Source: Aminithiophilus ramosus
Lineage (GTDB): Bacteria > Synergistota > Synergistia > Synergistales > Aminithiophilaceae
DNA: 64,000 bases
Reading direction: 5' to 3'
Assembly: GCF_018069705.1 (NCBI RefSeq)
Contig: NZ_CP072943.1
Coordinates: forward strand, 2,943,945-3,007,944
In this document: in pieces, positions 20,117 through 37,470 of the stretch
How positions within the stretch are numbered: the first letter of the stretch is position 1
Layout of the letters: each line of letters begins with the position of its first letter
The notes under the pieces: model-generated
Database searches by the model: none
What the model was told of the DNA's origin: nothing
Seen by the model: the letters and a program-made list of their open reading frames with translations, nothing else
Position numbers and translations under genes: made by a program

Positions 20117-20221
20117 GCTTTCTGCCTGGCCGTCGAAAAAGGGGAGGTGGTGCGCCGTCAAGCGCTCGAATCGGGGACGGGAAGGGGAAAGGGAATACGG
20201 TGACAGAGAAAGGGGATTGCG

Positions 20222-21229: not shown

Positions 21230-21291
21230 GACATCGGTCGGGGAGGAAGGAAACCGCTCTTCCTCCCCGACCTCAGACCGGAGGTGACTTC

Positions 21292-21834
21292 GTGAACGCC
21301 ATCGAAGCGATCAAAGGCTCCCTGTTCTGGAGGGTTCTGGGCCTCTTCCAGAAGGCGATCCTCATCCTGTCCAGCCTCTTCGTCGCCCTCATCATGTGCG
21401 CCCAGGTCCTGATGCGCTACGTCTTCAAATCCGATCTCTACGGGATGGAGGAGATCATCGTCATCGTCGCCTTCTGGCTCTATTTCATGGGCAGCTCCTA
21501 CGGCGTCTACGAAAAGAGCCACGTAAGGGCCGACATCATCCCCCAGCTTCTGTCGGAAAAACCCCGGAGGATCCTCTCTCTGGCCGTTCAGGCTACGATG
21601 ACGGCTCTCTGCCTCCTCTTTTCCTGGTGGGGGCTGGACTTCATCGGCTACAGCCTTCAGGAGATGCCCCGGACTCTCATCTGGGCGATCCCTCTCGCCG
21701 TAGGCCAGTCCTCGGTCCTCGCGGGCTACCTGATCATGAGCTTCTATTCCGTCGTCTACCTCGCCGAGGAATTCCTGGAGATCCGGGCTTTCCTGCGCAA
21801 GGATTCGACGGCTGAAGCCACCCAGGCGAGGTGA
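21292..21834 (+). CDS. dctQ: TRAP transporter small permease (DctQ)
   Basis: 4-TM protein. GTG start at 21292 preceded by GGAGGTG. Confidence 0.7.
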   Translation: MNAIEAIKGSLFWRVLGLFQKAILILSSLFVALIMCAQVLMRYVFKSDLYGMEEIIVIVAFWLYFMGSSYGVYEKSHVRADIIPQLLSEKPRRILSLAVQATMTALCLLFSWWGLDFIGYSLQEMPRTLIWAIPLAVGQSSVLAGYLIMSFYSVVYLAEEFLEIRAFLRKDSTAEATQAR

Positions 21835-21841
21835 GCCCGCG

Positions 21842-23146: not shown

Positions 23147-23162
23147 ACAAGGAGGATCGATC

Positions 23163-24797
23163 GTGGAGCGACGGGAAAAGATCCTCGAACTGCTTTTTGA
23201 TCTCTGCCGCATTCCCAGCGTCTCTCCCGACGCCGAAGGAGAGCTTGCCGTCGTAAACCTTCTGCGCGACCGCCTCGCCCGGGAACCCTATTTCGCCGAT
23301 TCCGGCGGCGATCTGCGCCTTCTCGATCTCGAGAACGATCCGTTGGAACGGAAGGCCCTCTGGGCCCTCGTCCGGGCCGAACCTCCCACGGAAGCGACGA
23401 TCCTCCTCATGGGACACATCGACGTCGTCGCCCCCGAACCTCTGGCCGATCTGCAACGGCTCGCCTTCGACCCTCGGGCCTACACGGAGGCCCTCAAGGA
23501 AATCGTCCTGCCTCGAAAGATCGACGACGATCTCCGCTCGGGCCAATGGCTCTTCGGCCGAGGCGTGGCCGACATGAAAGGCGGCGTCGCCGTCGAAACC
23601 ATTCTCCTGGCCGAGGCCTCCCACCGTCCTGCGACCCTTCCCTGCAACGTGGCTCTCCTCGTCGTACCCGACGAGGAGACGAGCTCCCTGGGCATGACGG
23701 GGTCTCTCCCCCACCTGGTCCGCCTTCAAGAAGAGGGGCTCCGTTTTCTGGGCTGCATCGACGCCGAGCCCACGGTGACGACGGGAGAGGGTGAGGAGGC
23801 CTCCATCCACCTGGGGAGCATCGGCAAGATCAACCCCTTCTTCCTCTGCCTCGGCAGACGAGCCCACGTCGGAGAGTACTACGAAGGCCTTTCGGGAGCC
23901 CTCATCGGCTCTCACCTCAACACGATCCTCGACGGCAACGCCGACCTGACGGACCGCCTCGACGGCGTGGCCTACCCCGGCTACGCCTCCATCTGGCAGA
24001 GAGATCTCCGGCCCGATTACGGAGCCACCCTGGCCGACAGACAGGGACTTCTCTACAGCCGGCTCACCGTCGACGGCCTCCCCTCCGACCTCATGGAGGA
24101 GCTGACGGCGGCGGCCCTGGAGGCTCAGCGACGGGCTCTGTCCCAGATCGACGCCTCGGCGCGCTCCTTCTCTTTCCACCGCCCCCGCCCCGTGACGCCT
24201 CCCGCAGGGGAGCCCCGGGTCGTCCGCTACGAAACGCTGCTCGATCAGGCCTCGGCGGCAGGCGTCGACGTGACCTCTCTGACGGAAACCGTCCTCGAAA
24301 AGAGAAAAAGCGAGGACCCTCGCCTCGCCGCCCTGGAAATCGCCTCGGCCCTCCTCGACGCGTCGGGAGAGAGGGGCCCCCTCATCGTCGTGGGCTTTCT
24401 CTTCCCCTACTACCCGCACCGGATCAACGGGGGACGTTCCGAGGGCGACCGCCGCATGGCCGCCGTCGCCCAAGCCGTGGCCGAGGCGGCACGAAGCCGT
24501 TTCGGCCGTCATCTGGGCCTCCGCCCCCTTTTCGAGGGCGTCAGCGACCTGAGCTACTGCGGCTTTTCCGCCGACAGGGCCGAGCTGGATCTGCTGGCCC
24601 GTAACGTCCCGGGCTGGGGCAGGCTCTACCGCTTTCCCCTGGAGGCCCTGGCCTCTCTCGATATCCCCATCCTCAACGTGGGTCCTCTCGGGCGGGACGC
24701 CCACAAGAGCACCGAGCGCGTCCATCTCCCTTACCTCCTCGACGAACTTCCCTCTCTTCTGGAAGTGGCCATGGCCGAGGCAGCGGCCTTTCGCTGA
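23163..24797 (+). CDS. M20-family metallopeptidase/amidohydrolase
   Basis: GHIDVV motif and ArgE/DapE/CPG2-type fold. Co-operonic with the TRAP transporter. Confidence 0.65.
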   Translation: MERREKILELLFDLCRIPSVSPDAEGELAVVNLLRDRLAREPYFADSGGDLRLLDLENDPLERKALWALVRAEPPTEATILLMGHIDVVAPEPLADLQRLAFDPRAYTEALKEIVLPRKIDDDLRSGQWLFGRGVADMKGGVAVETILLAEASHRPATLPCNVALLVVPDEETSSLGMTGSLPHLVRLQEEGLRFLGCIDAEPTVTTGEGEEASIHLGSIGKINPFFLCLGRRAHVGEYYEGLSGALIGSHLNTILDGNADLTDRLDGVAYPGYASIWQRDLRPDYGATLADRQGLLYSRLTVDGLPSDLMEELTAAALEAQRRALSQIDASARSFSFHRPRPVTPPAGEPRVVRYETLLDQASAAGVDVTSLTETVLEKRKSEDPRLAALEIASALLDASGERGPLIVVGFLFPYYPHRINGGRSEGDRRMAAVAQAVAEAARSRFGRHLGLRPLFEGVSDLSYCGFSADRAELDLLARNVPGWGRLYRFPLEALASLDIPILNVGPLGRDAHKSTERVHLPYLLDELPSLLEVAMAEAAAFR

Positions 24798-24855
24798 AAG
24801 CCCCATGGGCGATACGTAAAACATCCAAGGACACCCAAAGACCAGCCAAAACGGC

Positions 24856-24890
24856 ACAACGGGGCTCTCAAAAACGGAGAGCCCCGTTGT
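24856..24890 (-). terminator. Rho-independent terminator at the 3' end of the gas-vesicle operon
   Basis: ACAACGGGGCTCTC loop GAGAGCCCCGTTGT, with a T-tract on the minus strand after the hairpin. Confidence 0.7.
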
Positions 24891-24929
24891 TGGATAAGCC
24901 GATATATAAATAAATTTATCGAAAATTAT

Positions 24930-25193
24930 CTATTCAATATCCGTATTACCTCTATAACGCAGGTTTTTTCGTTCAAATGAAATCAATCCTCCATTTTCGT
25001 CGAGAAAGACATCGTAACGACCCAACACATCCATCGTTTCCGGTATGGATTTACGCTCAAGCCCTTCGACAGACACAATCCATTGACCATCCATCCTAGA
25101 AACTCCCACCACTCTCTCTACAGAAAGTTGAGCTAAAAGAGAAAGATCTTCTCTGGCTTTTTTAATAGCCTCTTCAGCATTCACAATTTTCAC
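24930..25193 (-). CDS. Small hypothetical protein, last gene of the gvp operon
   Basis: 87-aa ORF, AT-rich codon usage like the rest of the island. No recognisable motif. Confidence 0.4.
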   Translation of the reverse strand: MKIVNAEEAIKKAREDLSLLAQLSVERVVGVSRMDGQWIVSVEGLERKSIPETMDVLGRYDVFLDENGGLISFERKNLRYRGNTDIE

Positions 25194-25215
25194 TTCCCAT
25201 CATTATATTTACATT

Positions 25216-25779
25216 TCAAGCTATAGAGTTAATCCTATTTTCTAAAACGGATTTGATTTTAAGCATATCACGAGAACGCAACAAGAATGAACCACCTGAC
25301 ACAAGAGAGAAATCCATGACATCCATTTCCAAACTACCTTCATCTTTCTTTTTAGTTACATTAAATATATTTACATCCGACAAAAAACATCTCAATATGA
25401 CATTTTTAGAGTTGTTTTGAGAAACAATTAGTTCGTTAGATGTAATACAAAGAAATCCTGATTTCCAATTTTCATAAGGACAATTATTTTTTAGTATAGA
25501 AACAAATGTTTTCAAAAAGACTTTTTCATTCAAATTTAAAATAAGTTTATTTTTTTCTGTTTCTTCAATGGCATATGCCCTTTGAGCTTCATCCCAATCA
25601 TTCCATATGCCATAACGAAGCATTGTCTCCATTCCAGCAATACAAGCCTTAAGACTTAATCCTAACAAAGGAATTCCAGCAACATGAATAATTATATCAG
25701 CATGAAGAACAATTCCTTTATCTAGAATTCTCTCTAACAAATCAACCAAAGTTGCATCGTAATCCCTAGTAGGCTTCAT
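25216..25779 (-). CDS. GvpJ/GvpM-family protein (GvpA-like core plus C-terminal extension)
   Basis: N-terminus LVDLLERILDKGIVLHADIIIHVAGIPLLGLSLKACIAGMETMLRYG aligns with the GvpA core. Confidence 0.7.
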   Translation of the reverse strand: MKPTRDYDATLVDLLERILDKGIVLHADIIIHVAGIPLLGLSLKACIAGMETMLRYGIWNDWDEAQRAYAIEETEKNKLILNLNEKVFLKTFVSILKNNCPYENWKSGFLCITSNELIVSQNNSKNVILRCFLSDVNIFNVTKKKDEGSLEMDVMDFSLVSGGSFLLRSRDMLKIKSVLENRINSIA

Positions 25780-25788
25780 GCTAACGCT

Positions 25789-26625
25789 TTATTCCACGTA
25801 GTTAGAGCTAATACTCCGAGAAATTCCACTTATATCACCAACAAAGCTATAAAGTGGCCAAGGCCCTGTAAATCTGACAGAAAAACTATCATATAATTTT
25901 ATTTCATCCAAAAAATTACCTAAACCGTCAATTTTATCGTTATCAACCATACAGGACAGGTTTAATATCATTTTAGACGAAGCATCAGTTTTTTTAGGCT
26001 TTTCTATTACAATTTCACTGCAGCAAGACAAAACTTTATTATAAAAATAATCAGAAAACTTATTTATTTCAATTAAAACTTCATCCTTAATGGCCTTATC
26101 TAGTTTTTGTTTATACATATAAGCAACTCCCGGAGACTTCAAATCAATATCTTGCTTTAATTTAAGTAGATATTTATTTTCAAAAGCTATTTTATTTTCC
26201 AAAACATCCGTTGCACAAAAAAGCTGGACAACATATTCATTTTTATTTTTAAATCTACGCATCATGCAGGTTAGAGATTCTTGCTCTTCTTGAAGCCATT
26301 TTAATATTACATGATCAGAAGAAAGCTCTCCCTGAGCGCAGACAATCGTATCAAAACTAACAGGGACAACACAATCAAACACCTTACTCGCTTCATCGAG
26401 CACTCGATGATGATCCATCACCCACGCTCGAACTGAATCCGCCTCTGCCGATCGATAAGGCTGCGGAAGACAATCATGAACGATAGCGCATAAATCCCCG
26501 GAGATAATCATGCGAACCGGTTTGCCACCAATCCCCAAAGAAGTGAAAGACACTCTCTCCAAAATCAAGGCAAGACCATAAACGTACCTCCCATCCTCTT
26601 CAAAAGGTGGAAAAACCTTCTCCAT
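25789..26625 (-). CDS. Gas vesicle protein GvpF/GvpL family (copy 2)
   Basis: N-terminal YVYGLALI..GIGG..V motif typical of GvpF/L. Size 278 aa. Confidence 0.65.
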   Translation of the reverse strand: MEKVFPPFEEDGRYVYGLALILERVSFTSLGIGGKPVRMIISGDLCAIVHDCLPQPYRSAEADSVRAWVMDHHRVLDEASKVFDCVVPVSFDTIVCAQGELSSDHVILKWLQEEQESLTCMMRRFKNKNEYVVQLFCATDVLENKIAFENKYLLKLKQDIDLKSPGVAYMYKQKLDKAIKDEVLIEINKFSDYFYNKVLSCCSEIVIEKPKKTDASSKMILNLSCMVDNDKIDGLGNFLDEIKLYDSFSVRFTGPWPLYSFVGDISGISRSISSNYVE

Positions 26626-26696
26626 CGCCAGCGCCCCCTCATTCAGACAAAAAAGGCCCTGTCCTCCATGGCAAACCCATGGCTAAAGCCTCATCT

Positions 26697-27011
26697 TTAT
26701 CTATCAATCTCATCACGCCAACGCTCTGGATTCACAATACGATCCAAAACGTCACCAACCACTTGATCCAATCCATCGCGCACAGCTTGAACCGACTCAA
26801 CAAGGTCATTATCCTTTTTGATTTCTTCTAGAGCAATTTCAAGCTCCATTAAAGCCTCTCCAAGACGCTCACACTCTGCCTCTCGGATAGAGCCTTCATC
26901 CATTCTTTTAACGGCTTCAATTTTAAGAGCATCGCGAATGACTTCAACAAGAGCTACGACCAACCCCAACAACCCCTGCTTCAAATTTCCTTCGTCAATA
27001 TTAAGAGACAT
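26697..27011 (-). CDS. gvpK: Gas vesicle protein GvpK
   Basis: LLGLVVALVEVIRDALKIEAVKRMDEGSIREAECERLGEALMELE matches the GvpK consensus. Confidence 0.7.
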   Translation of the reverse strand: MSLNIDEGNLKQGLLGLVVALVEVIRDALKIEAVKRMDEGSIREAECERLGEALMELEIALEEIKKDNDLVESVQAVRDGLDQVVGDVLDRIVNPERWRDEIDR

Positions 27012-27014
27012 TAA

Positions 27015-27455
27015 TTACTCCTTGTCAAGCGTTATCTTCAACACACCATTCCTATATTCAATTATATGAGACATTTCGTTTGGTATTCTAGGGACGACGT
27101 TCACGGATGCGATTAAAGTAATTTTATTCCCTTCAGAATATATATCCATACATGAAAATTCTTTATTTAATCCTATCTCATCCACAAACCACCACTGGAA
27201 AAACCATTGCTTACCGTCACACGGATCTATTTTTGATTCTTTAAAAACAATAATGGAGTATCCTAATATTTTTTCAGAATTTGTATTTATTATATGTTTT
27301 ATTCTATAAATTATCTCAAAGTCATTCCTACAGCTTAAATCCCGTCTAAGATCCACTATGCTTGCATGACGTCTCCACCAAACGTCCAGCAGCAAAATTT
27401 TGCTTATTGAATCTATGGAATCCAACAAGTCAGATAAAAAATTCCTGTTGTCCAT
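27015..27455 (-). CDS. Hsp20/alpha-crystallin-like small protein (possible GvpH-type chaperone)
   Basis: C-terminal ...EYRNGVLKITLDK resembles the Hsp20 C-terminal beta strand. Weak overall. Confidence 0.4.
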   Translation of the reverse strand: MDNRNFLSDLLDSIDSISKILLLDVWWRRHASIVDLRRDLSCRNDFEIIYRIKHIINTNSEKILGYSIIVFKESKIDPCDGKQWFFQWWFVDEIGLNKEFSCMDIYSEGNKITLIASVNVVPRIPNEMSHIIEYRNGVLKITLDKE

Positions 27456-27463
27456 ATTTAAAT

Positions 27464-27844
27464 TTAATCTACGATAGCAATGGATTCTTCGTTTTTATCC
27501 AACAAAGACTCTCTAGCCCTGGCACTGACCCATCCGCACCAAGGACAACATTTCGACAAAAGCTCTTCCGTAAAAACTCGCTTTCCGCACTGAGGACATG
27601 TTTCCTTGCCTTTTTGCGCTTCTTTCCAGGCATCTGTATTGTAATTTGTTCCACTTGGAAATTCCAATCCATAATGAGCCGCAGTTTCGAAAGAAGCTAA
27701 AGCAGCTCGTATCTTTATTCCAAGCAATTCAACACCTGCTACAGACACGCAAATATCGGCATTGATAACTAAACCCTTATCTAAAACACGGTCGATAACA
27801 TCGACCAGCGTCGAACTTGCCTCTCGTGTGGGTTGCATAGACAT
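27464..27844 (-). CDS. GvpJ/GvpA-family protein fused to a C-terminal zinc ribbon
   Basis: LVDVIDRVLDKGLVINADICVSVAGVELLGIKIRAALASFETAAHYG (GvpA-like) followed by CPQCG...CPWCG. Confidence 0.7.
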   Translation of the reverse strand: MSMQPTREASSTLVDVIDRVLDKGLVINADICVSVAGVELLGIKIRAALASFETAAHYGLEFPSGTNYNTDAWKEAQKGKETCPQCGKRVFTEELLSKCCPWCGWVSARARESLLDKNEESIAIVD

Positions 27845-27853
27845 CGACCGTTC

Positions 27854-28090
27854 TCACCTCTCAGCCTTTATTTTTTTTAATCTTTCTATTAGATCATTTT
27901 CGAGTTCATCGTATTCATTTTCACTCAAGTTTCCATCTTCCAATGATTTTTGAATTTCTTTAAGCCTAGCTCTAATGGCATCTTCTGTCATCAGGCCTTC
28001 CTTATCTATTTCTTTTTTAATGGCAAGAATAATTTCTTTCGACAAAATAACGGGGATACCTATGAAAATATCTTTTATTAAACCTAACAT
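27854..28090 (-). CDS. gvpG: Gas vesicle protein GvpG
   Basis: 78 aa. MLGLIKDIFIGIPVIL...GNLSENEYDELENDLIERL matches the GvpG family pattern. Confidence 0.7.
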   Translation of the reverse strand: MLGLIKDIFIGIPVILSKEIILAIKKEIDKEGLMTEDAIRARLKEIQKSLEDGNLSENEYDELENDLIERLKKIKAER

Positions 28091-28842
28091 GGTTTTTTAA
28101 AATAATTCATTTCCACATTCAAAAACGTATAGGGAGGCAGAGGAGCAATACACTTAAAATTAAATTTATTATTATACTTTTCATCCAATTTATGGATTGA
28201 TTTTATAAAATCGTCTTTATCGGCTTTTTTTACAAGAAATGAGGCGTTTAGCACATTTTCTATACCAGATTCAGAGTCTTTATGGCTATCAAGAGCTATA
28301 TTTTTGAAATAACCATATATATCATCAGAATAAATATTTCTTTTGTCTAGAAGCAATGATTCTACTAATTTGCCAGCATCTATTTTAATATTTTGTTTTT
28401 CTAACAAAGAAGATGTTTTATTAATTTTAGATTTAATTTTAACTATTTCCTTGTTGTTGACTTCAATTTCTTTTATTTCTGAGTTATAATCCCAATAAAC
28501 CTTGACAACCACCTCAATGACGCCTGATAACCGATTTATTTCATTGACTATGGATTCTTTGCTTTTTTGCAGTAAATCCATCATTTCATTCTTAGATGCA
28601 AGTACACCAAATCCTGCTGGGAGTAAAGTGTATTTATCCATCAAAAATTCTTGCACGGTCGCGTGTGTGGAAATATTTTTCCTGGTCGGATATATTTCAT
28701 CGTTACCAAAGTCACTGACAACAGCAGAAATTTTATCTATACTAATAGAATAAACTTTTGAACTATTAATACCAATTACATCAAAAATCTTAAAATCAGG
28801 CTCATTTATAATACCATAAAAATATTTATTTTTAATATTCAT
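28084..28842 (-). CDS. Gas vesicle protein GvpF/GvpL family (copy 1)
   Basis: KYFYGIINEP...KVYSISIDKISAVVSDF is the GvpF/L N-terminal signature. Confidence 0.65.
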   Translation of the reverse strand: MNIKNKYFYGIINEPDFKIFDVIGINSSKVYSISIDKISAVVSDFGNDEIYPTRKNISTHATVQEFLMDKYTLLPAGFGVLASKNEMMDLLQKSKESIVNEINRLSGVIEVVVKVYWDYNSEIKEIEVNNKEIVKIKSKINKTSSLLEKQNIKIDAGKLVESLLLDKRNIYSDDIYGYFKNIALDSHKDSESGIENVLNASFLVKKADKDDFIKSIHKLDEKYNNKFNFKCIAPLPPYTFLNVEMNYFKKPC

Positions 28843-28846
28843 AAAA

Positions 28847-30973
28847 TCACCTCTTGCGTTCCATTACACTATTAATGGCTAAATCAAAATGATTTTTAAG
28901 TATAACAATTTTATTTTCACCGTTTGAAGCCATATATTCTCTTAACGCCAAGCGAGCTGCTTCTTGACATAACTGCTTGAGCTCTGCTCCAGAAAAATCT
29001 TCTGTACGCATAGAAATTTCTTCAAGCGAGACATCGCCATCCAAAGGCATTTTTTTGCTATGTATCTTAAGGATTTCTATCCGATCATCTTTATCTGGAA
29101 GATTGAAATTTAAAATTAGATCAAATCTGCCCGGGCGAATGATCGCTGGATCTATCAAATCTTGCCTATTGCTTGCAGCTAAAACTAAAACATCTTTGAG
29201 CTCTTCAATTCCATCCATTTCGGAGAGGAATTGGCTGATTACTCGATCAATAACTTGAGAATCTCCAAAAGAATGTCTTAGAGGGACCAATGAATCAAAT
29301 TCATCGAAAAATAAAATACAAGGGCTTGCCTGTCTCGCTTTACGAAATACCTCTCGAACTCCTTTTTCCGACTCTCCAACATATTTAGACAAAAGCTCCG
29401 AGCCTTTTACGGATATGAAATTAATTTCACTTTCGTTGGCCATGGCCTTCACCACTAACGTTTTACCCAATCCGGGAGACCCCGAGAGCAAGATGCCCTT
29501 CGGCGGCCGAAGCCCCACGCTCGCAAGCAGCTCGCCATGCTTAAGCGGCCAAGCCACCGCCTCCGAAAGCTGCCTCTTGATCTCGCGAAGGCCACCGACA
29601 TCTTCCCAGCTCACGTCGGGCACCTCCACGAAAACCTCCCGAATGGCCGATGGTTCCACTTCTTTGAGGGCACCAAGGAAGTCGTCCATCATCACTTCCA
29701 TTTGCAAAATATCGATGTCGGCGACCTCTTCGATCCGACAGGTGTAATCGGGAACGACCCTCCGCAGGACGCTCATGGCTGCCTCCCGACACAGGGCCTC
29801 CATATCGGCACCGACAAAACCGTGAGTCACTCGCGACAACCTCTCCAAATCGACATCGGAGGCGAGCGGCATGCCTCGAACGTGGATGCTCAATATCTCC
29901 AACCTGTCCCTCTGGTCCGGTATGGCGATCTCCAGCTCCCGATCAAACCGTCCCGGGCGACGAAGCGCCGGATCCAAGGCGTTGGGTATATTCGTCGCAC
30001 CGATGACAATGACGTCACCGCGCGACTCTAGGCCATCCATCAGAGCCAACAGCTGCGCGACCACCCGCCTCTCCACCTGTTTCTCCCCGCCCATTTCCTC
30101 CCGCTTGGGGGCAATGGCATCGATCTCGTCGATAAAAAGAATCGACGGGGCATTCTTTCTGGCCTCTTCAAAAAAGCCCCTCAACCTGGCCTCGCTCTCA
30201 CCATAAAACTTGCCCATAATTTCAGGCCCCGTCACATGGACGAAATACGCTGCCGTTTCACTGGCGACAGCCCTGGCGATCAGGGTTTTTCCACAGCCCG
30301 GAGGACCATAGAGCAATACCCCCTTCGGGGGATCTATACCCAGTCGATCGAAAAGGCGGGGACATTTCAGAGGAAGTTCGATCATTTCTCGTATTTTTTT
30401 AAGCTCTCTTGACAATCCACCTATATCTTCATAGGATATTTTGGATCTTTTAGTTGAATTTTGTTGAATTTTATCTAATAAAATACGAGTTTTTTGCGAA
30501 ATAAGGACAGGTCCGCCAGGAGTGGTATTATTGACCAAAAAATCCTGATTCCTGTTTCCCATAAAGTTAACTCTTATGAAATCACCCTCTATAACGGCAA
30601 GACCTGTCAAAATGGATCCTATATAGGAAATATCCTTATCTCCAAGTGGAATACGAACGTTTGACAAAGGAGCTATGACAATCTTTTCCGCTAATTTAAA
30701 ATCTATCTTTATTACATTGACGTTATTGTTCAATGACGTTTTTGCATTGTTTCTTAGAGTCCAATCCATTTGAATTATTCTTTTTCCTCGATCTTGCGGA
30801 AAAGTAGGCATTATTTTAGCTATAGTTTGCCTTTCTCCTTCAATCTGAACCACATCGCCTACACTTACACCCATTATTTCCATATCTACAGGGTCTATGC
30901 GAACAATTCCTCTCCCGACATCTTTTAAATTAGATTCAGCTACAATAAATACTGAATTATTGATTTTTCCCAT
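28847..30973 (-). CDS. CDC48/VCP-like AAA+ ATPase (N-domain plus two AAA domains)
   Basis: CDC48-type N-domain (SNLKDVGRGIVRIDPVDMEIMGVSVGDVVQIEG) and two Walker A motifs, GPPGCGKT and GSPGLGKT. D1 is encoded by a GC-rich block. Confidence 0.8.
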   Translation of the reverse strand: MGKINNSVFIVAESNLKDVGRGIVRIDPVDMEIMGVSVGDVVQIEGERQTIAKIMPTFPQDRGKRIIQMDWTLRNNAKTSLNNNVNVIKIDFKLAEKIVIAPLSNVRIPLGDKDISYIGSILTGLAVIEGDFIRVNFMGNRNQDFLVNNTTPGGPVLISQKTRILLDKIQQNSTKRSKISYEDIGGLSRELKKIREMIELPLKCPRLFDRLGIDPPKGVLLYGPPGCGKTLIARAVASETAAYFVHVTGPEIMGKFYGESEARLRGFFEEARKNAPSILFIDEIDAIAPKREEMGGEKQVERRVVAQLLALMDGLESRGDVIVIGATNIPNALDPALRRPGRFDRELEIAIPDQRDRLEILSIHVRGMPLASDVDLERLSRVTHGFVGADMEALCREAAMSVLRRVVPDYTCRIEEVADIDILQMEVMMDDFLGALKEVEPSAIREVFVEVPDVSWEDVGGLREIKRQLSEAVAWPLKHGELLASVGLRPPKGILLSGSPGLGKTLVVKAMANESEINFISVKGSELLSKYVGESEKGVREVFRKARQASPCILFFDEFDSLVPLRHSFGDSQVIDRVISQFLSEMDGIEELKDVLVLAASNRQDLIDPAIIRPGRFDLILNFNLPDKDDRIEILKIHSKKMPLDGDVSLEEISMRTEDFSGAELKQLCQEAARLALREYMASNGENKIVILKNHFDLAINSVMERKR

Positions 30974-31502
30974 TTTTAGGAGATATTTCTATTTTAAAAA
31001 TTCCATTTAAATAAGAATGAAGGAGTGTGTTTTGGTTTACATTGAATTCAGTTTTGATTTCCTTAAAGTATTTTCTTGATTTGCTCTCTGCTTGAACAAC
31101 TATAGTTCCATCTGTTATTTCAATCATAATATCTTCTTCATTCACGCCGGGCATTTCTAGAACTATAACCATTCTATCTTTTTCGTTAAAAATATCCGTT
31201 ATAGGTTCCCTGACTTCTTGTTGGTTATTTTCCAAATCAGATATTTTTTTATTTCCAAATGTTTCAATTATCGGCTTGCCTGCTAAATTTTTTACAGTAA
31301 AACCATAAATGCCCCGAATTCCTTCGGGGCTTTCAATAGATCCCTTTTTTTCAACTACATCAAACCTATCGACCATATCCAATAAACTACCTAACCCCTT
31401 AAAAATTCCTTCAAAACTTATTTTACCTTTTTTGAAATCTATCTCTATTTTATCTTTCTCTTCATCCGGATTTTCTTTTTTTTTACTATTATCCATTGTC
31501 AT
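30957..31502 (-). CDS. Hsp20/alpha-crystallin family chaperone (GvpH-like)
   Basis: Alpha-crystallin domain: MVIVLEMPGVNEEDIMIEITDGTIVVQAE ... NGIFKIEISPK. Confidence 0.75.
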   Translation of the reverse strand: MTMDNSKKKENPDEEKDKIEIDFKKGKISFEGIFKGLGSLLDMVDRFDVVEKKGSIESPEGIRGIYGFTVKNLAGKPIIETFGNKKISDLENNQQEVREPITDIFNEKDRMVIVLEMPGVNEEDIMIEITDGTIVVQAESKSRKYFKEIKTEFNVNQNTLLHSYLNGIFKIEISPKNGKNQ

Positions 31503-31535
31503 TTACGCAACACCCCGATCTAGGCGCTAAAACAT

Positions 31536-32465
31536 CTAATAATTCTCAACATTACCATATGGTTCTCTTTCAATATTGCTGGCTGCATCAATAATAAGCC
31601 TAGAAACCGAGGCTCTTTTTTTACTTGATATAATTGGCAATATAGTATCGTTGCATATTTCAATAAATCTATCTTCAGATATGTTGCCCTTTTTATCCAA
31701 AAAATCTATATATTTCGCTATTTTAATAGAAGACCGCACAGTGGGAGTAAGTTTATCCGAATAGTTATTTCTTATGGTTCTTATTAATTTAACTATTCTA
31801 ACTATTTCGCTTTCACATAAATCCACTCTACCTCGCACAATTGCTACTTCCGTCTCTTCGTCAAAGCTGCTTAACTCCAATGTTACCAGTCTATCTTTTA
31901 ATGCATCTTGACTTTTATAAACACCGGCATATTCCTCTGGGTTGGACGTGAATATCGCCCTGAAGTCGGGATGAACCCTAACGTAAGACTCTTTACCATT
32001 TCTACCCGAAACAGGAAGTATTTTACTCTCCAGCACTGATAAAAGGACGTTATTGGCCTCTGGTCTAGATCTAGTGAATTCATCATAGACAAGCGTCAGT
32101 CCACGCTCACACGCGACAGTCAGCCTGTTATCAAACCACTGAGACGTCATTACATCTTCTGTCTTGACAACAGACCTAATAAAATTGTCTTTAGTGTAAT
32201 TATGACGATATCCGGACACATAACCGACCAGATCGGAAGTTCCAAATTCATGATCACCACAAATCAAAACGACAGGACGACCTATTTTTGCGGCCACATG
32301 CATCGCTAAAGTCGTCTTGCCCACTCCAGTAGGTCCGCTTAAATGAATAGGAAAGCCACAGGAAGAATAACTAAGGGCTTTTTCGGATATTTTTGATATG
32401 TATGGAGTTTCTACAAACTCCAAGCTTGGCCTTGAAGTAATAAGCGTCATCCTTCCTCGATCCAT
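31536..32465 (-). CDS. gvpN: Gas vesicle protein GvpN (MoxR/CbbQ-like AAA+ ATPase)
   Basis: Walker A LSGPTGVGKTTLA, Walker B LVYDEF. Size 309 aa is typical of GvpN. Confidence 0.8.
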   Translation of the reverse strand: MDRGRMTLITSRPSLEFVETPYISKISEKALSYSSCGFPIHLSGPTGVGKTTLAMHVAAKIGRPVVLICGDHEFGTSDLVGYVSGYRHNYTKDNFIRSVVKTEDVMTSQWFDNRLTVACERGLTLVYDEFTRSRPEANNVLLSVLESKILPVSGRNGKESYVRVHPDFRAIFTSNPEEYAGVYKSQDALKDRLVTLELSSFDEETEVAIVRGRVDLCESEIVRIVKLIRTIRNNYSDKLTPTVRSSIKIAKYIDFLDKKGNISEDRFIEICNDTILPIISSKKRASVSRLIIDAASNIEREPYGNVENY

Positions 32466-32492
32466 AACTTAAATACCTCCAAAATCACAGGA

Positions 32493-32873
32493 TCAGTAAT
32501 GCATTTCAAAATTCTCATCATTCACTGCGTCGCCATCGCTTGAGTCGCACATATCAGAGCTATTCTCTTTTTGCAGTTCTCTGCGCAACTCCATCAGGGC
32601 TTTATTTTTGTCAATAATAACTGCAAGCTTCTTTCTGGAATTCAAAAGGCGCGCCCTGGCTCTCTCGACCGATTGCAACCTAGAGGCGAAACGCCTCTTC
32701 TCTCGCTCGAGCATCGTTTGGAAATTGCGATCCTTTTCCAAATCCGGAGCATCGTTATTATCAAAGGCACGAAACAAAGCACCTGTCGTCCTGGCTTTTT
32801 GGCCACGGAAAACTTCAGCATTGCTTTTAATATGGCGCATTGTTCGAAGTTTAGTCAGAGCTTCACTTTTCAC
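32493..32873 (-). CDS. Hypothetical basic protein between the coiled-coil gene and gvpN (possible GvpO-like)
   Basis: 126 aa, helical and charged, with an acidic C-terminus. No firm motif. Confidence 0.4.
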   Translation of the reverse strand: MKSEALTKLRTMRHIKSNAEVFRGQKARTTGALFRAFDNNDAPDLEKDRNFQTMLEREKRRFASRLQSVERARARLLNSRKKLAVIIDKNKALMELRRELQKENSSDMCDSSDGDAVNDENFEMHY

Positions 32874-33888
32874 CGATTTCTACCTCCCCTTCTGACAAAG
32901 GGAAATAAAGCTTACCCTCCCTTCGAATCCCGCCCTCATCCAAGAGATTTCTTGACACTCGTCCCAACGCCACTGTGGCCATGCCCAACTTATCGGCCAC
33001 ATCGGTCAGGGAGATACCTTCAGGATGCGCCTTAATGACTGACAAAAACCTGGTCTTAAGATCTTCCCCCGTCACAGCAAAGTCCTCTTCCTCCGTTGCG
33101 CGTTCAAGTACGGAGCAATCCGGGTCCCTCTCATCCGCCTCGGGAGAGGCGTCATCTCTTGATTCGACGGAAGGTTCGGCTTCAACCTCATCGTCTTCGC
33201 AAGACTCTTCATTCACAAGGCATTCCGACCAAACCGCTCTCGTCTCCTCAAGCAAGTCAATAATGACCTGCCTTTCTTTGTTTAAATTATTTCTTAACAT
33301 ATCTACGCTTTGTTTCATGTTGGAAATATCCGCTAATCTTTTTTGACGTAATTCATCGAATTGATTTTTTAATGATTCACGAATGTCACTTAAAATATCT
33401 TTAACCTCTTTATGCAGGTTTTCTATCTCAATCTTACGGTTATTGATATTCAATCTAACATTTTCATTATACTGTTTTTTTAGCGATAAAATCTTTTCTC
33501 TTGATGCTTCTATTCTCTTCTTATTTTCTTCTTTGAGCTCTTCTCTTATATCTGGGGTATTTTTTTGGGATGCCAACCTTGACGCCTCAAAAAGAAGATC
33601 AAGCTCTTTTTTGAAGCCATCCAACATATCTGCCGTGGATTTTTTAATTTCCATGACTTCTTCTTCTATTTTCTTTTTATTTTGAACCAGCTTTGATTTC
33701 ATCGACTCTTTCTCATCAAATCTCTCGGTAGAAAAGGTTTTAAGTGTTTCATCTATTGTTTTTTTAAGATCTTGGAGATTTTGATATCTATCGGCATGAG
33801 AATCAGCCAACTCCTGAACCAATGACCTAGTCTCTTCCAATAAATTCACAGTCCATCCCTCCTCGGTTATTATGGTTTTAAATCTCAA
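32863..33888 (-). CDS. Coiled-coil protein with C-terminal winged-helix (MarR/ArsR-like) domain
   Basis: About 230 aa of heptad-rich, K/E-rich sequence, then ISLTDVADKLGMATVALGRVSRNLLDEGGIRREGKLYFPL. Confidence 0.5.
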   Translation of the reverse strand: MRFKTIITEEGWTVNLLEETRSLVQELADSHADRYQNLQDLKKTIDETLKTFSTERFDEKESMKSKLVQNKKKIEEEVMEIKKSTADMLDGFKKELDLLFEASRLASQKNTPDIREELKEENKKRIEASREKILSLKKQYNENVRLNINNRKIEIENLHKEVKDILSDIRESLKNQFDELRQKRLADISNMKQSVDMLRNNLNKERQVIIDLLEETRAVWSECLVNEESCEDDEVEAEPSVESRDDASPEADERDPDCSVLERATEEEDFAVTGEDLKTRFLSVIKAHPEGISLTDVADKLGMATVALGRVSRNLLDEGGIRREGKLYFPLSEGEVEIGEK

Positions 33889-33939
33889 AACCCATTATTT
33901 TGCAATTTAACATAAAAATTCATCTAAATGCATTAATAA

Positions 33940-34641
33940 TCAAATTTCATCGCGTGTTGCGATAGGTTCTATTCTATATTGCGATCTTTCATCTTTAAAT
34001 CTACCCAAAGTGGCTCTTACTTCTTCTCTTCTTAAATCCCTATCTTGTTCTCTTGTAAATCTACTTTTTATTGTTTCAAGCTGCCACATGTCTTTCATTT
34101 CTAGGGAGCTGGACCGCTCCAACAGGCGGCGCATAGAATTGTTCCATTCCAACATTATTTTTTTATAGCATTGAATTTTATACTGAAATTTACATAATTG
34201 CTGAAATACGTCGTCTCCGTTTTTTTGATAAGTCCCTTTCATTTCATCAACGAAACATTCCAGCTCTTTTTTATCTATAGTCTTTTTAATGCAATTATAA
34301 ACTTTAGTTTTAAGAGTTAGCGTCAACTCTATCTGTTCTTTTAAATATCTCCTCAGAGATAGCTCGATTTCTTGACTATCAGCTATAAGAACGTCTCTAT
34401 CTTTATCTATTCCATCAAAAAGCCTATTCATGAAGTTATCAAAATCTTTTTTTCTGAAAGAACAATTTCTCGCTGCCATCTCTCTCAAGTCTACGCGCAG
34501 GTGATCGCGCTCTTTATGAAGGATTTCCAAATCCTCCGCCAAGCTCGACGTGACCTCATGGACCGTAGAGACCATCTCTTCCACCATGAGGATCCTTGAC
34601 GAATGGGCATCGATAAGATCAAGGAGCATACATTCATCCAT
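33940..34641 (-). CDS. Hypothetical helical protein immediately downstream of the gvpA array (GvpC-position)
   Basis: ORF extends to 34689, but the compositional change suggests the start at MDECMLLD (34641). Confidence 0.4.
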   Translation of the reverse strand: MDECMLLDLIDAHSSRILMVEEMVSTVHEVTSSLAEDLEILHKERDHLRVDLREMAARNCSFRKKDFDNFMNRLFDGIDKDRDVLIADSQEIELSLRRYLKEQIELTLTLKTKVYNCIKKTIDKKELECFVDEMKGTYQKNGDDVFQQLCKFQYKIQCYKKIMLEWNNSMRRLLERSSSLEMKDMWQLETIKSRFTREQDRDLRREEVRATLGRFKDERSQYRIEPIATRDEI

Positions 34642-34732
34642 TTTCGATACTTGGCCTCCCGAGGAAGGGCATATGGCCTGGCAGGGCACGCTTGCGAAAC
34701 AAGGGAACCCTGGCAGACCTCCACAAAGGAAC

Positions 34733-34942
34733 TTACGCGGAGATCGGAGCCGTCAGGCCGACCGCTTCGGCGTACTTCAGGTAGGTCTCCACACCGGCGA
34801 CGACCACCCGTGCCTCGACGGTCAGAAGTTCCAGCCCCAACAGGGAGATCCGCACCCACGCATCGATCACGAGACCCTTGTCGAGAATCCGATCGATGAC
34901 CTCAGCCAGACCCGACGAAGCCATAGACGTCTGCACTGCCAT
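34733..34942 (-). CDS. gvpA: Major gas vesicle structural protein GvpA (copy 3 of 3)
   Basis: [69 protein letters not shown] is canonical GvpA. Confidence 0.95.
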
Positions 34943-35011
34943 TTCGTTCCGCCTCCTTACGAGTCTTTCCTTGGGCTTTCCTTGCCTCCTGCGGGAGGGC
35001 GCCGCCGATCC

Positions 35012-35221
35012 CTACGCGGAGATCGGAGCCGTCAGGCCGACCGCTTCGGCGTACTTCAGGTAGGTCTCCACACCGGCGACGACCACCCGTGCCTCGACGG
35101 TCAGAAGCTCCAGCCCCAACAGGGAGATCCGCACCCACGCATCGATCACGAGACCCTTGTCGAGAATCCGATCGATGACCTCAGCCAGACCCGACGAAGC
35201 CATAGACGTCTGCACTGCCAT
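35012..35221 (-). CDS. gvpA: Major gas vesicle structural protein GvpA (copy 2 of 3)
   Basis: Protein identical to the other copies. RBS GGAGG 8 nt upstream of the ATG. Confidence 0.95.
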
Positions 35222-35290
35222 TTCGTTCCGCCTCCTTACGAGTCTTTCCTTGGGCTTTCCTTGCCTCCTGCGGGAGGGCGCCGCCGATCC

Positions 35291-35500
35291 CTACGCGGAG
35301 ATCGGAGCCGTCAGGCCGACCGCTTCGGCGTACTTCAGGTAGGTCTCCACACCGGCGACGACCACCCGTGCCTCGACGGTCAGAAGCTCCAGCCCCAACA
35401 GGGAGATCCGCACCCACGCATCGATCACGAGACCCTTGTCGAGAATCCGATCGATGACCTCAGCCAGACCCGACGAAGCCATAGACGTCTGCACTGCCAT
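35291..35500 (-). CDS. gvpA: Major gas vesicle structural protein GvpA (copy 1 of 3, promoter-proximal)
   Basis: Identical GvpA. RBS AGGAGGTG upstream. AT-rich promoter region at 35510-35640. Confidence 0.95.
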
Positions 35501-35509
35501 TTCGTTCAC

Positions 35510-35650
35510 CTCCTTTCTTGTACGCTAAACTTGCAGAATACTACATCAGCATTCTTCAAGGAACAAGGCCTTTTTAGCATTTTTTAATAAATATTTATAC
35601 TTCTTGACATGAGTCTCCGTCAGACAGGGGCAATAATATTAGAAGATACT
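35510..35650 (-). promoter_or_regulatory. AT-rich promoter region for the gvpA-led operon
   Basis: Only AT-rich stretch upstream of gvpA. Contains TTGACA-like and TATAAA/TAATAT-like hexamers. Exact -35/-10 pairing not resolved. Confidence 0.4.
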
Positions 35651-36252
35651 GCTCTGTTCTCCGCCTTGTTTCATTTTTTTGGAAAACACGACCAACAGCA
35701 CCCCCGGCAATCGCTTCAGGGGAGACAAGACAGACCAGCACCGCAGGACCTCGGAGAGGCCCGCGTACGAGAACGAACCCACAGCCGGATTCACCTGGGG
35801 CTCAACCCCAGCACGACAACCCTGCTACGGCGACGGAACAGGCGAAAAGGGGAGAGGAGAGGTAACATAGGGAGAACAGCGGAGAGGAAGATGGGAAGGA
35901 ACGGCGTCGAACGTCGTTTTCGCTTCGCTGCACCTGTGAAGGGAAGGCCAATAGAACAAGACGAACTATTGAAAATTGCAACCTTACAAGCAGATTATAG
36001 CACCTGATTGCCTCTGTCAAGGACCGCTTTTTCTCTTTATCGTGGACGAAGAGGGCTCGTCTCCGCCCGTGGGGAAGGCTCGGAAAGCCCCTGGCGGAAG
36101 GGGACGGGCTGTCGCACCATGACGGCGTCCAGGAAGACGTCTTTCGAGGCTTTTGACCGCCCGAATCGGCTCTGGCTCGCGAAAACAGGGAGAAAACGGT
36201 CGGTCCGGGATGCCCTTCGGGCAGTCTTCACCGCTCCCGACGGGAGGCCTCC

Positions 36253-37470
36253 TTGCGGAAAGGACGACGAACCATGGGGAAAGGCCCTTCGGAGACAGGA
36301 ATTCCTTCCTCGGCTCTTTCGGATAGAATCTCTCCGCCCTTCCGCCTCATAGGGGGCGATCCCTCGTTCACGGGAACTCCGCTGAAAAAAGGCGCCGTTT
36401 TTCGCCACCCCTTCGACGGGGAAGGAGGCCAACGTCTCTGGGTCGATTCGGGGCGCTCGGCCCTGGCCGTCGCCCTGGCCGCCCTGAGGGAGAGGGGAGC
36501 TCGGCGGGCCTGGCTGCCCTTTCTCTGCTGCAGCTCCGTCGTCGAGCCCTTTCTCGAGGCCTCCTTCTCGCTCCGCTTCTACGGCCAGTCGGGCCGCACC
36601 CCTTTCTGGACCGCTCCCCCCTCGGAGCTGAGACCGACAAAAGACGACGTCCTTCTGTTCATCCACTATTTCGGCTTCCTCAACGAGGGGATGGCCGCCT
36701 TTCTCGACGGGCTCGACGAGGCCAGGCGTCCCTTCGTCGTCGAAGACGCCGTCCCGGCCTCCCTCACCGAAGGGACGGGGCGTTGGGGCGACGTCACCCT
36801 CAGGAGTTTCCGCAAATTTCTCCCCGTCGCCGACGGCGCCGTCGTCGCCTCCCGCGATGCCTTCCTGGCGGGAACGGTCTGCCTGGGGGCACCCGACATC
36901 CGACGGCTGCGGCTCAAGGGCTGGGCCGCCCTGGGGCGGTACCTCTGCCCCGACGAGGGACGGCGCTGGCTCGCCCTGGCTCGCCAGGGCGAGGAGCGCT
37001 TCGACGGAAGGCCCCGGCTCCCCTCGCCTCTGAGTCTGAAGATCCTGGCGCGCTGCGATCTGCCCTCCGTCGTCGCGGCTCGGCGACGGAACTACGAAAG
37101 GCTCCTTGAAGAGCTCGAGCGCCACCGTATCCTGGACCCTCTTCACCCTATCGCGGAGAGGCTCCCTCCCCACGTCGTCCCCCAGGGACTGCCCCTCCGC
37201 CTTTTCGGTGGCTCCCGGGACGAAGTCCTGCGCCGCCTGCGCCGTGAAGGGATCTTCTGCCCCGTCGACTGGGGCGTCAACAGCCTGGCCGAGGCTCCCG
37301 CCGAGGAGGATGCAGGCGTGGCCCGCTCCCTTCTCGTCCTTCCCGTCGATCAGGGGCTGAACGGCCAGGCTCTGTCCTTCATCGCCGACAGGGTGGGAGA
37401 CGCCCTGCGGACGGGCGGACAGCCCCCTTCACTCTCGCGCCGCCGGGGAGACCGGCCGGCGACACGTTGA
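36253..37470 (+). CDS. PLP-dependent DegT/DnrJ/EryC1/StrS-family aminotransferase-like protein
   Basis: Family pattern SGRSALAVALAAL..RAWLPFLCCSSVVEPF and SFRKFLPVADG (SF-x-x-K lysine). True start may be internal. Confidence 0.5.
   Translation: MRKGRRTMGKGPSETGIPSSALSDRISPPFRLIGGDPSFTGTPLKKGAVFRHPFDGEGGQRLWVDSGRSALAVALAALRERGARRAWLPFLCCSSVVEPFLEASFSLRFYGQSGRTPFWTAPPSELRPTKDDVLLFIHYFGFLNEGMAAFLDGLDEARRPFVVEDAVPASLTEGTGRWGDVTLRSFRKFLPVADGAVVASRDAFLAGTVCLGAPDIRRLRLKGWAALGRYLCPDEGRRWLALARQGEERFDGRPRLPSPLSLKILARCDLPSVVAARRRNYERLLEELERHRILDPLHPIAERLPPHVVPQGLPLRLFGGSRDEVLRRLRREGIFCPVDWGVNSLAEAPAEEDAGVARSLLVLPVDQGLNGQALSFIADRVGDALRTGGQPPSLSRRRGDRPATR

Follow-up and report, generated by a model that had tools for sequence, protein, structure and literature searches.

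The closest described counterparts of the locus analysed here, a gas vesicle protein (gvp) gene cluster within a 64,000-nucleotide stretch of the Aminithiophilus ramosus chromosome (contig NZ_CP072943.1, hereafter the window), are the vac regions of haloarchaea, the gvp cluster of Bacillus megaterium and a group of bacterial clusters that include a gene for the small heat-shock protein Hsp20. In haloarchaea gvp clusters are also found on plasmid DNA of lower G+C content (GC) than the chromosome and, according to the work of Offner and Pfeifer, eight families (GvpA, F, G, J, K, L, M and O) are reportedly essential. The B. megaterium cluster serves as the model bacterial cluster for acoustic reporter genes and is sufficient for gas vesicles to be formed in E. 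coli. Hsp20-containing gvp clusters have been described from Chlorobi, Bacteroidota and Acidobacteria (PMC2963123). The cluster of A. ramosus, a member of the Synergistota, consists of 17 genes on an AT-rich island in a high-GC genome, and the reading favoured here, to which we assign a probability of roughly 0.8, is that a functional gvp operon entered an ancestor shared by A. ramosus and its sister lineage from outside the Synergistota as one 11.4-kb block and would since then have been inherited vertically under purifying selection.

The island shares GvpA, F, G, J, K, L, M, O and N with the vac regions of Halobacterium salinarum (gvpACNO/gvpDEFGHIJKLM), and haloarchaeal GvpH may correspond to a small heat-shock-like protein of the island. 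Unlike the haloarchaeal regions, however, it is a single co-directional operon in which hidden Markov models (HMMs) detect no GvpC, GvpD/E or GvpI and which adds a CDC48-type ATPase, Hsp20, two paralogous long-helix proteins and a triplicated gvpA. The B. megaterium cluster (gvpAPQBRNFGLSKJTU) is also one-directional and has gvpA/B, N, F, G, L, K and J in common with the island, but the HMMs detected none of the GvpP, Q, R, S, T and U families in the latter, where CDC48, Hsp20 and GvpO are found instead. The clusters of PMC2963123 have the same gvpNLFGJKM plus hsp20 architecture, although the ArsA homologue stressed in that description is absent from the island and those clusters match the GC of their hosts; clusters of Chlorobiaceae, Prolixibacteraceae and Acidobacteria were recovered in the genome scan described below, with CDC48 proteins 57-60% identical to that of the window. 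The same gene order from gvpA through gvpO, with counterparts of the three genes that belong to no family, is present on two metagenome contigs (L009 and L010), in a metagenome-assembled genome (MAG) of Atribacterota (L012) and in a Chloroflexi MAG (L013), but all four are uniformly 44-53% GC without any intragenic mosaic, and L009, the only one of these contigs to span the gvpA end, has a single gvpA copy. In its sharp compositional break, its accessory function and the existence of an empty site in relatives the locus resembles classical AT-rich islands of GC-rich genomes, from which it differs in being old, in lacking integrase, tRNA and direct repeats, in showing no detectable non-synonymous amelioration and in having a conserved internal GC mosaic.

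An AT-rich island, broken only by a GC-rich gvpA array and one GC-rich block within the CDC48-like gene, had been proposed in the earlier note on this DNA, and both the 1-kb and the 200-bp GC profiles bear this out. From 24.9 to 34.6 kb GC lies at 0.24-0.50, the flanks being at 0.60-0.70. In 1-kb windows GC ranges from 0.29 to 0.50 between 25 and 35 kb and from 0.59 to 0.70 in the rest of the window; at 200-bp resolution it falls at ~24.8 kb and climbs back at ~34.6 kb, the two GC-rich patches lying at 29.4-30.4 kb (0.51-0.59) and over the gvpA array at 34.6-35.4 kb (0.58-0.65). Mean GC is 0.39 compared with 0.65 for the host, i.e. ~26 points lower. When tetranucleotides are correlated with those of the remaining window, the two 5-kb island segments give -0.27 and -0.14 and every other segment at least 0.96; codons that are rare in the flanking genes make up 39% of island codons but 4.8% of flank codons. 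GC at third codon positions (GC3) is 0.32 in the island and 0.87 in the flanks, and an index resembling the codon adaptation index (CAI-like), with the flanks as reference, gives 0.17 for the island and 0.58-0.82 for 18 host genes. Purines are in excess on the island's coding strand (A+G 0.57, GC skew +0.24) but not on that of host genes (A+G 0.47, GC skew -0.08). The island deviates drastically from its host in GC, in GC at fourfold degenerate sites (GC4), in tetranucleotides and in codon usage.

Three related lineages were found by searching with the M20 peptidase that precedes the island, and two of them lack the island altogether. In one of these (L094, 81% nucleotide identity) the order IclR-dctPQM-M20 is followed after 50 bp by a 385-aa homologue of the 398-aa gene that lies beyond the island in A. 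ramosus, with no gvp DNA, and the contig aligns to window positions 19320-24798 and 36436-37388. In the other (L092/L093, 82-84%) M20 is followed, after 575 bp, by a gene for a methyl-accepting chemotaxis protein (MCP), alignment to the window ending at 24799 and starting again at 37615. The sister lineage, represented by contigs L005-L008, carries the entire island at the same junction with 82% nucleotide identity, and the L005-lineage alignment is continuous through the terminator region into the end of M20; over 159 columns of the M20 end and downstream sequence the window and L005 are the closest pair (80%, compared with 61-69% for the other pairs). As the site is empty in relatives and the island occupies the same junction in the sister lineage, the simplest history would be that 24798-~36250 was inserted once, in the ancestor that A. 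ramosus shares with the L005 lineage. The acquisition is an old one, made before a speciation event, with 43% of fourfold sites in the AT-rich parts differing between the two lineages. The CDC48 protein of the window is identical to the one recorded for A. ramosus. The same junctions are found in a closed 3.2-Mb chromosome ('Aminirod propionatiphilus', equated with A. ramosus; CP074691.1), which is 99.95% identical over 21.6 kb and has three gvpA copies and a CDC48 protein differing from that of the window at one residue, and in independent assemblies, a MAG and a Logan contig in which this DNA recurs with the gvpA array reduced to one copy; the island is therefore not an artefact of assembly. 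The inserted block is somewhat longer than the 10.7 kb (24895-35650) of the earlier note and takes in the GC-rich gvpA array and a 764-bp upstream region. Two further candidates were rejected: a plasmid vector, as no plasmid CDC48 exceeded 52% identity, and an island remnant in the L093 spacer, where 15 nt are identical to gvpA but the match reaches no further and is likely to be due to chance. The features of the block, with HMM scores and cut-offs, are as follows.

24798-36250, no strand assigned: inserted block between the M20 stop codon and the 398-aa gene, made up of the terminator region, 17 gvp genes and 764 bp of upstream non-coding DNA
24857-24889, no strand assigned: hairpin in the gap that separates gvpO from the convergent M20 gene; stem of 14 bp, -31.9 kcal/mol, z = -4.99
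24930-25193, minus strand: gvpO, 84-87 aa; PF05800 67.8 bits (cut-off 25); dN/dS 0.15
25216-25779, minus strand: GvpM-like protein of the GvpA family with a C-terminal extension, 187 aa; PF00741 57.6 bits
25789-26625, minus strand: gvpL/F paralogue, 278 aa; PF06386 161.7 bits (cut-off 23.6)
26697-27011, minus strand: gvpK, 104 aa; PF05121 60.9 bits (cut-off 25); dN/dS 0.04
27015-27455, minus strand: protein with an Hsp20-like C-terminus, 146 aa; hhalign match to the Hsp20 profile of the cluster
27464-27844, minus strand: gvpJ-like, with a C-terminal CxxC...CxxC tail, 126 aa; PF00741 60.9 bits
27854-28090, minus strand: gvpG, 78 aa; PF05120 35.7 bits (cut-off 30.6)
28084-28842, minus strand: gvpF/L paralogue, 252 aa; PF06386 151.7 bits (cut-off 23.6)
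28847-30973, minus strand: CDC48-family double-ring AAA+ ATPase, 708 aa; TIGR01243 891 bits (cut-off 803)
29470-30373, minus strand: GC-rich block within the CDC48-like gene, corresponding to the D1 ATPase domain (codons ~200-500); GC3 0.57-0.80
30957-31502, minus strand: small heat-shock protein with alpha-crystallin domain, 181 aa; PF00011 25.9 bits (cut-off 20.8)
31536-32465, minus strand: gvpN AAA+ ATPase, 309 aa; TIGR02640 equivalog 331 bits (cut-off 267)
32493-32873, minus strand: basic protein without family, 126 aa; no Pfam or NCBIfam match; dN/dS 0.13
32863-33849, minus strand: protein predicted (AlphaFold2, AF2) to have two very long helices followed by a disordered linker of acidic character and a winged helix at its C-terminus, 328 aa
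33940-34641, minus strand: helical paralogue of the 328-aa protein, 233 aa; hhalign 99.4%
34733-35509, minus strand: three tandem gvpA genes (34733-34942, 35012-35221, 35291-35500) with identical 69-aa products; PF00741 56-57 bits (cut-off 25)
35994-36020, minus strand: promoter-like TTGACA-15 nt-TGcTATAAT, read from the sequence, ~485 nt upstream of gvpA1

Families were assigned with Pfam and NCBIfam HMMs, remote homology was assessed with hhalign and structures were predicted with AF2 and compared with Foldseek. The 17 open reading frames (ORFs), all on the minus strand with overlapping or near-abutting ends as had been claimed, fill 24930-35509 with intergenic gaps of -17 to +71 bp, which leave no room for the eighteenth gene of the earlier count. 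The identification of three gvpA genes, gvpN, two gvpF/L genes, gvpG, gvpK, two GvpJ/M-like genes and a CDC48-like gene stood up to the HMM searches, in which each of the GvpA/J, GvpF/L, GvpG, GvpK and GvpN families was assigned. Of the two Hsp20 proteins that had been proposed the 181-aa protein passes the Pfam cut-off (an archaeal Hsp20 model of NCBIfam gives 112 bits, under its cut-off of 140), but the 146-aa protein matches no Pfam or NCBIfam family and is linked to Hsp20 by a remote alignment of its last 61 residues (86-146) to the Hsp20 profile of the cluster (hhalign 97.7%, E = 2e-12). Nor are there five genes that defy annotation: gvpO had been overlooked, and three genes are left without a family (126, 328 and 233 aa), the latter two lying directly downstream of gvpA. 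All eight of the families essential in haloarchaea are present, together with GvpN. The two additional PF00741 proteins are members of the GvpA family, and which of them is J and which M is suggested by their best NCBIfam matches, halo_gas_GvpJ for one (99.7 bits, under the cut-off of 125) and halo_gas_GvpM for the other (93.2 bits, under the cut-off of 109); the gvpJ-like protein is 95% identical in amino acid sequence to that of the sister lineage.

The CDC48-type protein has the layout of CDC48/p97, an N-domain (double-psi barrel plus beta-clam) followed by D1 and D2 AAA modules, with domain scores of 77.9 bits for CDC48_N, 36.2 bits for CDC48_2 and 293.6 bits for two AAA domains, as well as two AAA_lid_3 domains. 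GvpA matches solved gas vesicle shells (8gbs, E = 9e-28; 7r1c, which is B. megaterium GvpB, E = 2e-23), and its three genes form an array with a 279-bp repeat unit (Tandem Repeats Finder: period 279, 2.8 copies, 99% match). Among the genes without a family, the 126-aa basic protein has homologues at the same position in 14 loci, equivalent to nine distinct clusters, seven of the 14 being assemblies of A. ramosus and its sister lineage; the 233-aa protein has homologues in 38 loci, is 94% identical between the two lineages and has a ratio of non-synonymous to synonymous substitution (dN/dS) of 0.05. The AF2 model of the 328-aa protein (mean predicted local distance difference test score 70) has helices at 3-96 and 99-216 and an H-H-H-beta-beta arrangement at 261-315, whose weak Foldseek resemblance is to MarR/ArsR winged helices (E = 0.04-0.2); a homologue search with this protein returned its own clade only, so that the model rests on three sequences. 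No ORF matches any Pfam or NCBIfam model of GvpC, a non-universal outer protein with a reinforcing role. The two long-helix paralogues sit in the position of GvpC downstream of gvpA, a likeness of position alone and not of established homology. In all 14 genes other than gvpA, including those without a family, dN/dS is 0.03-0.21 with a synonymous divergence (dS) of 0.6-1.4 (window against L005/L006), from which it follows that all of them are maintained by selection.

CDC48 was also used to scan one genome per species, and at least 80 loci were among the matches listed. At least ~48 of these are gvp clusters of the present type, with the order gvpA - helical proteins - gvpN - Hsp20 - CDC48 - gvpF - gvpG - gvpJ - ... 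- gvpK - gvpL - gvpM - gvpO, and they belong to Atribacterota, Chloroflexota, Acidobacteriota, Planctomycetota, Chlorobiota, Bacteroidota, Desulfobacterota, Pseudomonadota and other phyla; their CDC48 proteins are 51-70% identical to that of the window. Outside its own clade (90-100%) the closest CDC48 proteins are those of L009 (70%) and L010 (66%), both of which are encoded in the same gvp gene order within clusters that include homologues of the three genes without a family, and the nearest named relatives among the matches listed are Atribacterota and Chloroflexota MAGs (64-65%), which lie outside the phylum of the host. For CDC48, GvpK, GvpJ, GvpN and GvpA alike, the nearest relatives listed, as ranked by matches and not by a full phylogeny, are in Atribacterota and Chloroflexota MAGs and in metagenome contigs. 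By comparison, the five Synergistota CDC48 loci listed (Acetomicrobium, Aminivibrio, Fretibacterium and two MAGs) are 53-56% identical and have no gvp genes nearby. Horizontal acquisition, as put forward in the earlier note, is thus supported by composition, by empty sites in relatives and by the position of the nearest relatives among the matches listed, the last of which would point to a source outside the Synergistota. The scan also indicates that a CDC48-family double-ring ATPase and Hsp20 are regular parts of one widespread type of gvp cluster (at least ~48 of loci L012-L091, plus L009-L011); no discussion of this type was found in the literature searched, despite its occurrence in at least ~48 species-level genomes, in which gas vesicles are linked with CDC48 only incidentally, in haloarchaea. 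A separate observation is that gvp genes appear to occur beside CDC48, and mostly Hsp20, in MAGs labelled Patescibacteria, Saganbacteria, Altiarchaeota and Bathyarchaeota (L026, L047, L062, L018, L040 and L085), although in the locus labelled Altiarchaeota only gvpF/L and Hsp20 were detected. Gas vesicles in these groups would be unexpected.

A number of observations weigh against acquisition as a single foreign block. No donor was found, and the closest relatives (L009/L010) are uniformly ~50% GC rather than AT-rich; since the nearest relatives are 44-53% GC and uniform, an AT-rich donor is something that we infer and do not observe. For the GC-rich D1 block and the remainder of the CDC48-like gene the nearest neighbours are identical, with a relative divergence of 2.45x for the former and 2.10x for the latter, so that there is no phylogenetic sign of a separate source. 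The mechanism of insertion has left no trace: there is no integrase among the 17 ORFs and no tRNA in the window, and the block has no flanking direct or inverted repeats of at least 10 nt, no att site and no target duplication. Amino acid replacements polarised with L009/L010 (codon positions 1-2) comprise 55 changes from strong (G or C) to weak (A or T) bases (S>W) and 48 in the opposite direction (W>S), whereas host rates taken from M20 and DctM (S>W 59, W>S 38) predict ~43:60 for the island (p ~0.01), which suggests that at the amino acid level there has been no net gain of GC since the split, unlike in simple amelioration. That both lineages with an empty site have lost the operon is, moreover, a formal possibility. 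An operon ancestral to this branch of the Synergistota, deleted from the lineages with an empty site and owing its composition to local evolution, would account for the lack of mobility genes, att sites and duplications, for a co-divergence with the host in which 112 nt at the end of M20 are ~87% identical (judged by eye) and the island 82%, and for the absence from L092/L093 of the neighbouring 398-aa gene as well, which would mark the site as prone to rearrangement. Such an origin is nevertheless unlikely, given that in the outgroup L094 the M20 and 398-aa genes are 50 bp apart with nothing between them, that none of the Synergistota CDC48 loci among the matches listed is linked to gvp, that the island-bearing lineages are sisters over the 159 columns, which makes a single gain no less parsimonious than two clean losses, and that codon usage, tetranucleotides and the purine content of the coding strand are all foreign to the host. 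It is scarcely credible that the island should be a chimera of assembly or a relic in decay and without function. A metagenome contig (L002) does join the island end to a truncated 23S rRNA, and MAG assemblies do collapse the gvpA array to one copy, but the closed chromosome has the same junctions and all three copies, and every ORF is intact in two lineages under the low dN/dS given above. The join in question (ERZ27315046 k141_78507, L002 9900-14013) puts the island terminator immediately next to a 3'-truncated 23S rRNA (covering 1-2241 of the 2925 model positions), beyond which lies a complete 16S; it could be a chimera of assembly or a rearrangement that truly took place.

If the foreign block is accepted, its present composition can be read in two ways. 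With single insertion from an AT-rich source the low GC4 of ~0.35 would be a foreign signature that was never erased. A possible though doubtful alternative is that AT-richness and GC mosaic are a maintained state and not a fading import. This might come about through selection on rare codons, with gvpA and the D1 block keeping GC-ending codons and the other 14 genes AT-ending codons rare in the host, so as to throttle their translation relative to GvpA or make it dependent on rare tRNAs; or the segment might escape the force, be it selection or GC-biased gene conversion, that holds up GC in the genome, and sit at an AT-biased mutational equilibrium. GC4 of the AT-rich parts is 0.36 in the window and 0.33 in L005 (host genes 0.83-0.93), and both lineages hold these values despite fourfold divergence of 43%, where saturation would be 71%, and W/S mismatches at 0.33 of a possible 0.45, i.e. 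with 73% of the W/S signal randomised; in the D1 block GC4 is 0.75 and 0.69 with 33% of fourfold sites differing, and host genes of related lineages differ at 24-41% (the 398-aa gene at 50%). A maintained state is also favoured by the balance of polarised amino acid changes, by the preservation between lineages of the fine-scale GC3 profile (r = 0.54 without the D1 block), by a roughly twofold faster divergence at fourfold sites of the AT-rich parts than of the GC-rich block (0.51 against 0.33 differing), as if only the GC-rich parts were constrained, by the fact that codon usage comes closest to that of the host in gvpA (CAI-like 0.43 compared with 0.17), the gene required in large amounts, and by the absence of any such gap to the host in other clusters of this type, cluster GC minus flank GC being -0.10 to +0.09 in 47 other genomes with measurable flanks and ~-0.26 in A. 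ramosus. Yet host-like rates in a two-state model can likewise reproduce the island, provided that ancestral GC4 was ~0.13-0.16, a value that could correspond to a donor of ~30% GC; an initial rough estimate had led to the view that amelioration was impossible, but this was wrong, as the two-state solution permits it. Synonymous changes polarised with L009/L010 give ratios indistinguishable from noise, the outgroups being too distant for them to be informative, and single nucleotide polymorphisms within the species (window against L002, polarised by L005) lean towards W>S (28 to 12 S>W), albeit in one recombination tract and with a W-biased outgroup. The strongly AT-shifted amino acid composition of the CDC48-like protein outside the D1 block fits a long stay in an AT-rich genome at least equally well, and maintenance would leave it unexplained why D1 alone is GC-rich when GvpN, GvpJ and the D2 domain, which are conserved, are not. 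The data would therefore be compatible with slow amelioration of DNA whose donor was very AT-rich as well as with maintenance of the AT-rich state, the former being given the greater credence.

The polymorphisms just mentioned are themselves strongly clustered. Of 40 polarised differences between the window and L002, 37 fall in 24876-26270 (from gvpO through the gvpM-like gene into the end of gvpL), where divergence is ~2.7% compared with ~0.03% for the remainder of the island. This concentration in one 1.4-kb tract points to import by recombination, by appearance from a diverged allele of the same island.

Within the island, GC3 along the CDC48-like gene is 0.17-0.40 over codons 1-200, rises to 0.57-0.80 over codons ~200-500 and is 0.23-0.37 beyond, and in gvpA it is 0.77-0.80. 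The D1 block has the same boundaries in sister lineage L005, the GC3 profiles of the two lineages being correlated (r = 0.72), and the GC-rich gvpA array and D1 block predate the split of the two lineages. The block is not host-like, with a CAI-like index of 0.36 and a coding-strand GC skew of +0.18 (host 0.58-0.82 and -0.08). The proportion of Phe, Tyr, Met, Ile, Asn and Lys (FYMINK) is 0.36 in the N-terminal part of the CDC48-like protein and 0.29 in the C-terminal part, against 0.24 in homologues, but 0.19 in the D1 block, against 0.23 in homologues; these opposite shifts across the block boundary make the parts look as if they had long been exposed to opposite pressures of base composition. 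Gene conversion of the D1 block from a non-gvp CDC48 paralogue of the host is very improbable. Synergistota do carry such genes (L044, L050, L054, L055 and L089), and the sharp boundaries of the block do coincide with a conserved domain, but the Synergistota paralogues, which come from genomes other than A. ramosus, are no closer in the block (67-70%) than gvp-linked homologues (69-76%, and up to 80% for P0005), and the codon index and strand skew of the block are not those of the host. Import from another sampled clade found no support, the block and the rest of the gene sharing their nearest neighbours (P0005/P0006), and a rank-correlation test of its origin was uninformative as the query sits on a long branch, at much the same distance from each of the 116 homologues. 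A tracking of protein conservation by GC3 was rejected outside the D1 block (r = 0.05), where GvpN, GvpJ and the D2 domain combine conservation with AT-richness. The most likely explanation, and our best guess, is that the mosaic would be an old recombinant of AT-adapted and GC-adapted alleles of the same cluster lineage, to which codon selection on highly expressed gvpA would have been added. Two smaller observations belong to the GC-rich patches. Plus-strand ORFs of 110, 164 and 111 aa lie antisense to the D1 block at 29415-30206 and probably owe their existence to its high GC. The 3' end of gvpA (window 34732-34810, L006 3-81; 79 nt only) is 97.5% identical between the two lineages, compared with 82% for the rest of the island, which could reflect either very slow synonymous change or recent exchange.

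From the known roles of the families it may be proposed how the operon would work. GvpA, produced from three tandem copies with comparatively host-like, GC-ending codons, would polymerise into a ribbed shell, whilst GvpF/L, G, J, K, M and O would act in nucleation and assembly. GvpN, together with the CDC48-type unfoldase and the small heat-shock proteins, may keep the very hydrophobic GvpA in an assembly-competent state. The operon would in this way make gas vesicles, and the product would lend buoyancy to a non-phototrophic anaerobe.

The ends and surroundings of the block are largely as had been described. The terminator claimed at 24856-24890 corresponds to a real hairpin (14-bp stem, z = -5), which is kept in sister lineage L005 with the distal stem altered on both arms and one mismatch remaining, and which looks like a bidirectional terminator. 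The flanking genes comprise rnfCDGEAB, an IclR-type regulator with the tripartite ATP-independent periplasmic (TRAP) transporter genes dctPQM and the M20 (RocB-like) peptidase, an MCP gene and group-4-hydrogenase-like genes, in agreement with the rnf, TRAP and hydrogenase flanks reported before. Hexamers in the AT-rich stretch 35510-35650, earlier claimed as the promoter, are weak. The near-consensus putative promoter at 35994-36020, whose 15-nt spacer falls outside the range of the promoter scan, would imply a long leader or an unannotated small transcript; the scan for sigma-70 promoters and terminators performed no better than on shuffled sequence, and Rfam and tRNA scans of the window, including the 35510-36273 upstream region, gave no matches. 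No Pfam or NCBIfam family matches the 398-aa gene (36274-37470), which is divergent from the gvp operon and natively adjoins the M20 gene; it has a homologue of 70% nucleotide identity in L094 and is missing from L092/L093. An IS3-family element of 1.27 kb (40444-41714, with an rve integrase ORF at 40626-41663) lies ~4 kb from the island and is the sole difference from the otherwise 99.95%-identical CP074691.1, where it is lacking, which makes it a strain-specific insertion.

Clusters of gvp genes are well known, and known to move horizontally, so that the core finding is an ordinary one. Apparently no gvp cluster had been noted in the phylum Synergistota before this one. The suggestion that gas vesicles would be notable in such an organism holds in so far as no paper linking them to Synergistota was found in a literature search, which did not cover the species description (International Journal of Systematic and Evolutionary Microbiology), but less so in that this cluster type is common in anaerobes of many phyla. 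It is the extreme, persistent and mosaic composition that is the unusual feature of this gvp cluster. With an insertion dated by a speciation event, a GC 26 points under that of the host, no gain of GC detected among amino acid replacements and a domain-sharp mosaic conserved in two lineages, it offers an unusually clean case for the study of amelioration. Should the AT-richness be maintained through codons, it would set an extreme stoichiometry of GvpA to accessory proteins or couple assembly to the supply of rare tRNAs; should the segment instead escape the force that raises GC, it would provide a natural read-out of the AT-biased mutational equilibrium of the host and a test bed for GC-rich genomes. 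Being compact, complete and AT-rich, the operon could also lend itself in practice to heterologous expression as an acoustic reporter. For the organism itself, a cultured sulphur-reducing fermenter of amino acids, the finding predicts a buoyancy phenotype.

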